A DNA stretch of 56,161 nt from Candidatus Hadarchaeales archaeon (GTDB lineage Archaea > Hadarchaeota > Hadarchaeia > Hadarchaeales > JAWBSP01). The notes under the pieces are model-generated. The model saw only the letters and a program-made list of their open reading frames with translations, did not search any database and was not told the DNA's origin. This document shows, piece after piece, positions 2,421 through 54,542 of this stretch. Where the stretch lies: positions 1-56,161 of the forward strand of contig JAWBSP010000005.1 in NCBI GenBank assembly GCA_038842485.1, given 5' to 3'. Both the position numbers and the translations under genes were made by a program. The stretch's first letter is position 1. Every line of letters begins with the position of its first letter.

Positions 2421-2562
2421 TCCATCCTATACTGAGGCAAGAGAATTTTCGTCATTAGCCGGAGTTTCTTATTGAGGGATTTTTTGGCTCAGGGAATCTC
2501 CACGACCAAAACCTCCTTCAATCCACCACTGTCTCGCGAAACAAGCAGATATCTTGACTGAG

Positions 2563-2634
2563 AGCCGGGAGCCGGATTTGCACCGGCGTAAAGCGGGTCT
2601 GCAGCCCGCCGCCTAACTACTCGGCCATCCCGGC
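2563..2634 (-). tRNA. tRNA-Cys (GCA), no intron, CCA not encoded
   Basis: Reverse complement GCCGGGA...TCCCGGC-T acceptor stem; GCGGG-CT-GCA-GA-CCCGC anticodon arm; U73 and G37. Confidence 0.96.
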
Positions 2635-50465: not shown

Positions 50466-50873
50466 CTAGCTCCAGCCCAGCACCAGCAGTTCACCTAGCT
50501 CTGAAACGTGGGTCGGCGGTAAGAGGGCTTTCGATTTCACCTCGGCCAGAAGCTTTTTCTCTTCCCTCGGGAGGAGAATGCCATACACAACAAACTTTTC
50601 ATCGGGTCGGTCTGAGGTGACCACATAGCACATGTATTTGACACCTTCCCTCCCCATTTTGAGAAAATCGGAAACTTTCGGGGCTCCTCCACAGCGGTAC
50701 TCCAAGTTCTTTGGTGGGAGAAGCTTCCCGACCCGCTTCAACACCTCCCAGGGTATCTCCTTGAGCCTCACCTCGCCCTCCTCCCTGAACTTGATATAGG
50801 GCCTCAGAAGGCGGAGGATGGGTTTGGTGAAACCCCTTGGCCCGTATAGACCCTCCTCCTCAGAACCTACCAT
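50466..50873 (-). CDS. Hypothetical protein
   Basis: 135-aa ORF with host-like codon usage. Confidence 0.6.
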   Translation of the reverse strand: MVGSEEEGLYGPRGFTKPILRLLRPYIKFREEGEVRLKEIPWEVLKRVGKLLPPKNLEYRCGGAPKVSDFLKMGREGVKYMCYVVTSDRPDEKFVVYGILLPREEKKLLAEVKSKALLPPTHVSELGELLVLGWS

Positions 50874-50935
50874 TTAAAACTCGTTATGGCCCGTTTCAAT
50901 TTTACCCTTCTTCGCTAACCCGAAGATTGCTGAAA

Positions 50936-51031
50936 TGGTAGCGGGGGGAGGACTTGAACCTCCGACCTCCGGGTTATGAGCCCGGCGGGCACTCCACGCT
51001 GCCCTACCCTTATAGACCGGTTAGGTTCGCT
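50936..51031 (-). tRNA. Initiator tRNA-Met (CAT) with an 18-nt intron at 4/5 (51010-51027); CCA encoded
   Basis: Spliced product AGCG|GGGTAGGGCAGCGTGGAGTGCCCGCCGGGCTCATAACCCGGAGGTCGGAGGTTCAAGTCCTCCCCCCGCTACCA; A1:U72 and three consecutive G-C pairs in the anticodon stem. Confidence 0.9.
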
Positions 51032-51124
51032 ACGGCAGGGTAGCACACCCGCTACCATTATTCTTAGACTCCCAGCGATAAAGGTTTTCGCCGAGTAACG
51101 AAATAGCAACCTGCGAATCTTTTG

Positions 51125-52138
51125 ATGGTCATCATCCTCCGGGTGGGAGAACTCTTCCTCAAGAGCGCAAAAACGAGAAGAAGGTTTGAAAATCTCCTAA
51201 TCCAAAATCTGCGGGAGGTCCTCCACGGGATAAAGTTTGAACTGGAGAAAGAAAGGGGACGAATTTACCTCTCGACGAAGAGCAGGAGGGCCTTGGATAG
51301 GCTTACCAAAGTTCCAGGCATAGTTTCCCTCAGCCCGGCCGTTACAGCCGGCCCTGAACTCAAGGATATAGTCCAAACTACAACGAAGTTTGCGAGCAAG
51401 TTCCTGAAGCCCGGCATGAGTTTTGCGGTTCGGGCTAGGGTCGTCGGAAAACACCCCTTCACGGCGGATGAGCTCAACCGGGTGGTGGGTGCATCCATCC
51501 TCCAAGCACTTCCTCGTACCACCGTCAACCTCTCCCACCCCTCTCTAACCGTTGAGATAGAAGTACGTGGAGGGAAGGCCTACGTCTTTTGTGAGAGGAT
51601 CAAGGGAGCGAGAGGGTTACCGGTAGGCTCGGAGGGGGAGGTCGTGGCCATCTGCAGCGGTAGGGCTGAGGAGGTGCTGGCCACCTGGCTTTCCCTGAAA
51701 CGGGGCTGCTCGGTGCATCCAGTTGTACTCTCCCACCAACCCCAGAGGGTGCTAGAGCAGCTCAGGAAGCTGGGGCAGCCGATGAACGGGATGCTGGTGC
51801 GGAGGAGAGTTGTGGATGGCACCATCGAAGGCGCGGCTATTGCCCTCAGGGTTGCGGGGGAACTTGGAAGGAAGATGGGTGCCCTTGCGGTCGTTTCGGC
51901 TGAACTGCTCGAAAACCTGCCCCCGGACCTCTCCCAGTTGGACTCGTTCTGCCCCCTACCCGTGCTCAGACCGCTGGCCGGAATGGACCTGGAGCTCGCG
52001 AGAACCTGCGCATCAGAAACCGGCCTCCAGCTCGAAGCTCCGCCTCCCTTGAAACCGGCCGAACTCTCGCCCGCGCAGATCGAGGAAACCGCCAAGGAAC
52101 TCCTGAAGCTGGCTAGAGAATTTCGCTTGAAGCCTTGA
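51125..52138 (+). CDS. ThiI-like protein (NFLD + THUMP) with a degenerate PP-loop domain
   Basis: GELFLKS..RRRFE, FAVRAR, VNL..P, GLPVG, KRG; SGRAEE in place of SGGxDS. Confidence 0.8.
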   Translation: MVIILRVGELFLKSAKTRRRFENLLIQNLREVLHGIKFELEKERGRIYLSTKSRRALDRLTKVPGIVSLSPAVTAGPELKDIVQTTTKFASKFLKPGMSFAVRARVVGKHPFTADELNRVVGASILQALPRTTVNLSHPSLTVEIEVRGGKAYVFCERIKGARGLPVGSEGEVVAICSGRAEEVLATWLSLKRGCSVHPVVLSHQPQRVLEQLRKLGQPMNGMLVRRRVVDGTIEGAAIALRVAGELGRKMGALAVVSAELLENLPPDLSQLDSFCPLPVLRPLAGMDLELARTCASETGLQLEAPPPLKPAELSPAQIEETAKELLKLAREFRLKP

Positions 52139-54469: not shown

Positions 54470-54542
54470 GGGCCCGTGGTCTAGCGGTTATGACGGCGGT
54501 CTTACACACCGCAGATCCTGGGTTCGAATCCCAGCGGGCCCA
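54470..54542 (+). tRNA. tRNA-Val (TAC)
   Basis: GGGCCCG...CGGGCCC-A; GCGGT-CT-TAC-AC-ACCGC; GGTTCGAATCC. Confidence 0.96.

Follow-up and report, generated by a model that had tools for sequence, protein, structure and literature searches.

The subject of this work is a tRNA locus on the minus strand of a 56,161-nt stretch of DNA from a Candidatus Hadarchaeales archaeon (contig JAWBSP010000005.1 of assembly GCA_038842485.1, positions 1 to 56,161; referred to as the window). We assign a probability of about 0.8 to the reading that this locus is the organism's functional gene for the initiator tRNA-Met, and that the gene is split between tRNA positions 4 and 5 by an 18-nt archaeal intron of the bulge-helix-bulge (BHB) type, which would be spliced out before the tRNA's 5' end is matured.

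The minus strand was read from 51090 to 50930, and the exons, the intron and all coordinates given in the original prediction, which had been made from the sequence by itself, were found to be exact. The leader ends in ...GTGCTACCCTGCCGT, with UGCC-GU (51037–51032) as the bases directly before exon 1. Exon 1 is AGCG (51031–51028) and corresponds to tRNA positions 1–4. It is followed by the 18-nt intron AACCTAACCGGTCTATAA (51027–51010) and by exon 2 (51009–50936), which opens with GGGTAGGGC, carries the anticodon CAU and closes with CCCCGCU-A-CCA at 50936, comprising tRNA positions 5–73 and an encoded CCA (50938–50936). Both exons are collinear and lie on one strand within 96 nt. Exon 1 and the intron were placed with the strict motif scan and the relatives, and both exons with ARAGORN run on the spliced form.

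The strict scanner accepted only motifs with a central helix (H) of 4 bp, two bulges of 3 nt, each cut after its second base, and flanking helices no shorter than 2 bp. It reported the complete hBHBh' motif that had been claimed, with an outer helix h of 7 bp, H of 4 bp and an inner helix h' of 3 bp. In helix h, CCCUGCC (51040–51034) pairs with GGUAGGG (51008–51002, positions G6–G12), and its 5' side is formed entirely by the leader. The central helix consists of GUAG (51033–51030) paired with CUAU (51015–51012), so that the leader bases –2 and –1, GU at 51033–51032, supply half of H; the BHB strand of the leader thus extends from 51040 to 51032, and the claim that the leader is part of the motif was borne out. 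The bulges are CG|A and AA|G, and h' is ACC/GGU (51026–51024/51018–51016). Within exon 1, A1 and G2 lie in H, C3 and G4 open the 5' bulge, and the cut is placed after 51028. The intron (AACCUAACCGGUCUAUAA, 51027–51010) starts with the third base of the 5' bulge (A), continues with ACC-UAACC-GGU as the h' hairpin and CUAU as its strand of H, and ends with AA, bases one and two of the 3' bulge.

When the intron was removed in silico, ARAGORN returned a perfect 78-nt tRNA-Met(CAU) cloverleaf including CCA. It has a 7-bp acceptor stem with A1-U72, the D stem GGGC/GCCC, the T arm GGAGG/CCUCC and the anticodon stem CCGGG/CCCGG, in which three G-C pairs adjoin the loop. Archaeal initiator tRNAs-Met are characterized by the anticodon CAU, the A1-U72 pair and an anticodon stem closed by three G-C pairs in a row. 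Judged by these three sequence features, the locus encodes a tRNA-Met of the initiator type and has its intron at 4/5, as originally predicted. The A1:U72 pair is also named for eukaryotic initiators in a passage of PMC8450103.

In the unspliced DNA ARAGORN calls only a distorted 73-nt gene, a tRNA-Met(CAU) at 50936–51008 with a mismatched acceptor stem, and the Rfam tRNA model aligns with its positions 5–66 of 71 at 44.2 bits. For comparison, the tRNA-Val and the tRNA-Cys of the window give full-length Rfam matches of 70 and 58.1 bits. The expectation that standard scanners could miss the gene did not hold, since both programs find it and merely misdraw its 5' end. Because the 5' end is drawn wrongly, such genes may be mis-annotated in metagenome-assembled genomes. 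According to a section of PMC8450103, tRNAscan-SE 2.0 lengthens its candidates by 60 nt so that introns close to the ends are caught.

By itself, a BHB is weak evidence. In 284,694 scanned bases (two contigs, both strands) 24 motifs were found with h of at least 7 bp and h' of at least 3 bp, and the 56-nt piece containing the BHB is not unusually stable (z –1.29; 26 of 200 shuffled sequences fold at least as well). The restored tRNA is more telling: when the 51-nt flank was shuffled 20,000 times, a minimal strict BHB with cuts close to where the tRNA body begins arose in 3,889 cases, and in only 23 was it combined with a restored 7-bp acceptor stem.

From this geometry an order of processing steps can be proposed. 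EndA would cut after G4 (51028) and before G5 (after 51010), and RtcB would ligate the exons. The 7-bp acceptor stem could not form until the RNA is spliced, and RNase P would cleave off the leader at 51032/51031 only then. As a cut at –1/+1 takes away half of H and all of h, we infer that splicing must precede the cleavage by RNase P. The assembly (G000; 943 kb, 88.9% complete) has genes for an archaeal RNase P RNA (full-length match, 226 bits), the RtcB ligase (PF01139, 580 bits) and a single EndA, a 171-aa open reading frame on contig C13 with N-terminal and catalytic domains (PF01974, PF02778); no EndA paralogue was found in the genome at E≤1. The architecture of this EndA looks like that of the homotetrameric type. 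Enzymes of the homotetrameric type are reported (PMC5829648) to need a canonical BHB motif, and a canonical motif is what the window intron presents.

Conservation of the intron module

The phylum is represented by 66 species genomes in our collection, and class and order comprise the same 65. We searched these genomes for the full module, that is, the upstream copy of the acceptor 5' strand described below, the leader, GUAGCG, an insert of 12–22 nt and GGGUAGGGC, the beginning of exon 2. The module was found in nine of the 66 genomes, belonging to 5 of 20 genera, and the reversed control pattern gave no match. Metagenome contigs add at least two copies among the 120 matching loci listed, one nearly identical to the window (L212) and one further variant (L290), the other matches among these 120 being coding sequence. 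Scanning of genome contigs yielded at least 120 loci, of which at least four (L119, L121, L155 and L172) are initiator genes with a double copy; 80 of these loci were seen with their titles and are almost all bacterial. Outside the phylum both scans give lower bounds and set no limit on the distribution.

Ten distinct sequences were aligned. All ten show a strict BHB cutting at AGCG| and |GGG, with h of 2–7 bp, h' of 2–4 bp and introns of 15–18 nt in the same layout. We scored 15 pairs, namely those of the leader hairpin, the two pairs of h beside the bulge, H and h', and found 98.0% of the cells paired, compared with 32–44% when the partners were slid against each other. Two of the 15 pairs, both in h', change on both sides (A-U/G-C/G·U and C-G/G-C), two vary on one side and 11 are invariant. 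The first pair of H is G-C in five sequences and G·U in the other five. The search for compensatory changes in relatives, which had been proposed as a check, gave two-sided changes in the two h' pairs and an exchange of G-C for G·U in H, with covariation that is modest overall; the leader elements display only one-sided C-to-U changes. In 10/10 sequences the inner hairpin is kept, as are the proximal GUAGCG and the CC in front of it. The conserved leader block CUACCC pairs perfectly with G5–G10 in an alternative register of the outer helix in all ten.

The tRNA body is 99–100% identical to the initiator genes of relatives. Identity to the locus of G017 amounts to 92% over 122 nt and to about 80% in leader and intron (our own count on the alignment). 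Recent lateral transfer from G017 was considered, and no such claim is made: the neighbouring gene is syntenic with the window's own genus and not with G017.

A second initiator gene, whose presence had been raised as a further check, was matched neither in G000, an assembly that is 88.9% complete, nor in the other intron-bearing genomes. Among the 44 Rfam tRNA matches in G000 there is a single other tRNA with the anticodon CAU (contig C8); it has G1-C72 and resembles an elongator or Ile2-like tRNA.

Several side observations concern relatives of the module. The L212 locus, otherwise identical, has A for G at the equivalent of window position 50971 in the 3' strand of the anticodon stem, which would give a C·A mismatch; this could be a strain variant or a sequencing error. 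In genus g10 (L020, L021, L023 and L033) the 4/5 intron is accompanied by four more insertions, one in the anticodon stem, one after position 37, one in the variable region and one in the T loop, and the initiator genes span 185–188 nt from G5 to A73, compared with 71 nt in the window. Genomes of two different families share an identical 32-nt string (GTAGCG... ...GGGTAGGGC, A-rich in between), at G026:C9:1852–1883 and G019:C175:6048–6079, and neither locus contains the initiator D-arm motif searched for.

A second copy of the acceptor 5' strand in the leader

The leader carries a further element that is absent from the original prediction and changes the model of maturation. At 51057–51047, UGGU and AGCGGGU form a pseudo-acceptor strand, here called the decoy, which is complementary to the 3' end of the tRNA (C67–U72, A73 and CCA); with A51058 and A51059 included, the helix reaches 12 bp. 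GUG separates the decoy from the leader element GCUACCC (51044–51038), which has two possible partners, GGUAGC of the decoy, giving a leader hairpin, and GGGUAG of exon 2 (G5–G10). Both pairings are 100% paired in 10/10 sequences, with one-sided C-to-U changes only. The minimum free energy fold of 130 nt pairs AAUGGUAGCGGG (51059–51048) with CCCGCUACCAUU and has –60.6 kcal/mol (z –3.53; none of 200 shuffled sequences was as stable). The true 5' exon is not paired with the 3' strand. Folding of the minus-strand region, another check that had been proposed, agreed with the original reading in one part: in the RNAfold ensemble at 37°C the register of the outer helix chosen there had a probability of 0.76, the CUACCC/G5–G10 register having 0.22, whereas the pairing of the 3' strand with the upstream copy had been overlooked. 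Before splicing, the decoy is predicted by these models to hold the 3' acceptor strand.

We surveyed 50 initiator genes from 50 genomes. G012 (L011), whose gene is cut by a contig end, was omitted, as were L031, L037, L038, L041, L042, G055:C21, G026:C9, G019:C175 and G002:C3, which are not initiator genes, and about 16 genomes of the phylum for which no initiator match was found or fetched. The copy is present in 31 of the 50 genes, in at least 11 genera, and absent from 19 (called plain genes). It has the consensus GGU+AGCG(G/A)G(G/A/U) and lies at the promoter-proximal end of the leader; relatives listed with it include L009, L017, L019, L026–L030, L044, L045, L048–L050, L060–L069, L191 and L192. 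Nine of the copies accompany the 4/5 intron and 22 an uninterrupted acceptor 5' strand. In 21 of these 22 genes the D arm is extended after G10 by an insertion of about 30 nt; the remaining one (G030), whose copy is mismatched, lacks any insertion near the 5' end. Hence 30 of the 31 copies co-occur with an intron or insertion near the 5' end.

In all 31 genes the copy matches 6–7 of the 7 stem positions. At least three further leader–trailer pairs beyond the stem were found in 31/31 double-copy genes compared with 8/19 plain genes. In G035 and G041, which belong to one genus, GAU stands with the trailer UCA instead of GGU with CCA, which counts as one compensatory event. When the 44 tRNA matches in G000 were screened, such an upstream complement was seen only at the initiator gene.

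A putative archaeal promoter, consisting of an A-rich BRE-like stretch and the TATA-like motif TTTATC (51082–51077), is located at 51088–51077. In the window the TATA-like motif starts 29 nt before the A of the decoy (51053). The spacing is 29–34 nt before the copy in double-copy genes and 27–36 nt before A1 in plain genes. Given this matching distance from the promoter motif, the copy occupies the position of the ancestral 5' end. Transcription would probably start a few bases before 51053, giving a leader of about 25 nt.

The folds of the unspliced RNAs were uniform. In G000, G017, G062 and the D-arm type G039 the decoy helix had a probability of 0.95–1.00 and the true acceptor stem of 0.00, at 37°C as well as at 70°C; for the window RNA (G000) the values at both temperatures were about 1.0 and 0.0. 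In plain genes the true acceptor stem reached 0.97–1.00, and in G030, which has the decoy without an intron or insertion near the 5' end, 0.73. All folds model secondary structure and take neither tertiary contacts nor modifications into account.

In the precursor the leader would pair with exon 2, and G–2, U–1, A1 and G2 would pair with the intron CUAU, giving the strict hBHBh', as sequence and conservation indicate. In the reading we prefer, the decoy helix would keep the 3' strand from competing with the BHB and would hold the pieces together. It would also tether the 4-nt exon through cleavage and ligation and would deny RNase P the true site until the RNA is spliced. With the acceptor stem interrupted in the unspliced RNA and the decoy predicted to occupy its 3' strand, RNase P would act at 51032/51031 only after splicing.

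It is possible, although we put it at clearly less than an even chance, that the copy works as a surrogate acceptor strand in an RNA switch of four elements: the decoy GGUAGCGGG (1), the leader GCUACCC (2), the exon sequence AGCG|GGGUAG (3) and the 3' end CCCCGCUACC (4). In the unspliced RNA, 1 would pair with 4 and 2 with 3, giving a pseudo-cloverleaf in which the BHB is displayed and the 4-nt exon stays tethered while the RNA is cut and ligated at high temperature. No substrate for RNase P would exist at the true +1; at most, harmless bases before the decoy would be trimmed. In the ligated RNA, 3 would pair with 4 and 1 with 2, and the true RNase P site would appear only then. If this were true, the leader would contain an RNA-encoded checkpoint that forces splicing to precede end maturation and that has been reused in the phylum for 4/5 introns and D-arm insertions.

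For the D-arm insertions themselves the position 10/11 in the 21 relatives is suggested by alignment. No strict BHB was found at the needed boundaries in the six genes scanned (L009, L026, L027, L028, L030 and L067). The 3' site looks canonical (a CCYC helix, then AA|G) and the 5' cut falls in a 7-nt loop, so that either the motif is relaxed or the boundaries are wrongly placed.

Points against the proposed maturation and alternative explanations

Several results speak against the splicing reading or the route proposed for it. In RNAfold the central helix H has a probability of only 0.24–0.27, which may reflect how the energy model handles a short helix between two bulges. The covariation is modest: the observed score is attained in 27 of 500 shuffles of the columns, and the majority of BHB columns are invariant; the support therefore comes mainly from conservation and a few compensations. 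The long outer helix that had been claimed exists with its 7 bp in the window and is peculiar to it: in the register of the original prediction there are 2 contiguous bp in six of the ten sequences, 3 in two, 6 in one and 7 in the window. Relatives keep only the two C-G pairs beside the bulge (51034/51008 and 51035/51007), which are the only invariant ones of this helix in 10/10. In the two other genomes of the window's genus the initiator gene is uninterrupted. Four metatranscriptome runs mapped to 50800–51200 gave 0, 0, 13 and 7 reads, none of which show the splice junction; the reads are confined to 50926–51009 and carry variants of other organisms, that is, they cross-map to the conserved T-arm region, and the result is uninformative either way. 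Finally, when the window RNA was spliced in silico, the decoy form was still favoured (–59.7 versus –53.5 kcal/mol; true acceptor stem 0.00). As the decoy helix still wins after splicing, release of the mature fold needs something beyond the model. Removal of the four bases before the decoy, which mimics possible trimming by RNase P on the pseudo-acceptor helix, raised the true acceptor stem at 37°C to 0.14 in G000, 0.61 in G017 and 0.97 in G062. These modelled folds match the two-step route only loosely and count partly against an easy release.

This last result also bears on the question whether the copy has a function at all. The intron could be real and the copy a functionless relic of a duplication or insertion that created a new leader, kept since the promoter precedes it. 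In favour of this, the copy corresponds in position to the ancestral 5' end, the spliced RNA would be trapped by it in the secondary-structure models, and G030 retains a one-mismatch copy although it has no intron close to its 5' end, which looks like a remnant left when an intron was lost. The survey argues in the opposite direction. The copy is kept in 31 of 50 genes and at least 11 genera while the adjoining spacer varies; the pairing at 6–7 of 7 stem positions with at least three leader–trailer pairs is retained in all 31 genes, the latter being present in 8 of 19 plain genes; the exchange of GGU and CCA for GAU and UCA in G035 and G041 is compensatory; and in 30 of the 31 genes the copy is found together with an intron or insertion for which the acceptor 5' strand has to be unzipped. 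We regard a functionless copy as rather unlikely.

Much less credible is the possibility that the upstream copy (AGCGGG, 51053–51048) is the real exon 1. A 40-nt intron would then reach to just before G7/U8, the proximal AGCG would be intronic and the same mature tRNA would result. The copy does stand at the normal distance of a tRNA 5' end from the promoter and carries the GGU leader that is found before A1 in 9/19 uninterrupted genes. It is paired with the 3' strand in every fold, and, GUAGCG being duplicated, the upstream GUAG could also pair with the intron CUAU. Against this, the motif required was not reported by the strict scan and, analysed by hand, has no outer helix and an inner helix of two wobble pairs in the window and of 1 bp in the G017 and g10 sequences. 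The interior of an intron would not need the conservation seen for the proximal GUAGCG, the preceding CC and the inner hairpin. Position 7 of the copy is variable (U, A or G), and in five of the nine intron genomes, the window included, the copy pairs at only 6 of 7 positions. Neither the strict scan nor analysis by hand yielded a second BHB that would link the copy straight to exon 2, whether ahead of the first splicing or following it. For EndA cleavage at the true –1/+1 junction, likewise analysed by hand, the required helices do not form.

That the locus is a decaying pseudogene or an assembly artefact, with the working initiator gene in the roughly 11% of the genome that is unassembled, would suit an assembly that is only 88.9% complete, the low or distorted calls of standard scanners and the uninterrupted genes in the other two genomes of the genus, yet it is highly improbable given a tRNA body 99–100% identical to relatives, an interrupted layout kept with structure-preserving changes in nine genomes and at least two metagenome contigs, the failure to find another initiator gene in any of the nine genomes searched, and the L212 contig, which reproduces the locus and both neighbouring genes at >99% protein identity.

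Comparison with known systems and neighbouring genes

The intron type itself is already known; it is the position 4/5, the host lineage and the surrogate strand that differ from described cases. Non-canonical BHB introns have been described at many positions, among them 3/4 in the acceptor stem in Thermoproteales (PMC4090602, in a passage citing Sugahara et al. 2008). Acceptor-stem introns had been called rare in the original prediction, and this statement must be read alongside the 3/4 position reported there. The window intron shares with these introns of Crenarchaeota the BHB of the EndA type outside 37/38, within the first bases of the acceptor stem, and for this reason both motifs must use the 5' flank. 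Relatives of the window gene have several insertions per gene, like the multi-intron genes of Thermoproteales. In contrast to the 3/4 introns, the window intron is located at 4/5 in a single initiator tRNA of a Hadesarchaea/Hadarchaeota-type host, and its leader contains a conserved second copy of the acceptor 5' strand. In the literature searched, which left most subscription papers and supplements outside its scope, we found no description of a duplicated acceptor strand in a tRNA leader. On tRNA introns in Hadesarchaea nothing beyond a survey figure was found; supplementary tRNA tables, which lay outside the search, could already list such genes.

In split and permuted tRNAs, according to sections of PMC4033280, PMC4090602 and PMC3218864, leader and trailer together build the BHB, and splicing comes ahead of the maturation of the ends. 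The split tRNAs of Nanoarchaeum equitans and the permuted ones of Cyanidioschyzon merolae and Thermofilum pendens resemble the window gene in that, as these sections describe, the BHB uses sequence outside the mature tRNA; for permuted genes splicing precedes RNase P and tRNase Z. Unlike these, the window gene is collinear and gives one transcript, only the leader contributes to the motif, and an ordinary cis intron is removed with no need of a circular intermediate. The upstream element copies a 5' strand and not a 3' half, so that the gene is neither permuted nor split. A BHB of leader and trailer as in permuted genes was also considered and rejected: the two form a 12-bp helix without bulges, and the sole strict match with UGGU and the 3' end is out of register. 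In Methanopyrus kandleri, the relevant part of PMC3695527 reports, the ends are trimmed before the intron is removed. RNase P, EndA and a ligase are shared with that organism, and the geometry of the window gene requires the opposite order for the initiator tRNA.

Because the initiator tRNA is indispensable and its gene single-copy here, its maturation route cannot fail. A BHB that borrows from the leader is a natural and compact substrate with which to study what keeps the steps of tRNA processing in order where there are no compartments. The surrogate strand, found almost only with introns or insertions near the 5' end, suggests a solution at the level of RNA that is testable with three enzymes and a 125-nt transcript.

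The divergent neighbour of the gene (51122–52138, plus strand) encodes a ThiI-like protein with ThiI ferredoxin-like, THUMP and ThiI domains. ThiI-family enzymes thiolate U8 of tRNAs. A ThiI-like neighbour, 47–53% identical, adjoins the initiator gene in the two other genomes of the genus. The tRNA-Cys(GCA) (2562–2634, minus strand) and the tRNA-Val(UAC) (54470–54542, plus strand) of the window are ordinary, uninterrupted genes, neither of which encodes CCA.

Elsewhere in G000, two tRNA-Gln genes (UUG and CUG) lie about 220 nt apart on the minus strand of contig C4 (43190–43570), both with D-arm insertions. They had been flagged in the screen for upstream complements, and the flagged elements turned out to be true 5' exons ahead of the D-arm insertions. 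Rfam aligns only the 3' parts of both genes, and their GGU leader is complementary to the trailer ACC. In intron mode ARAGORN calls spurious genes with introns of 22 nt and 958 nt at this pair.

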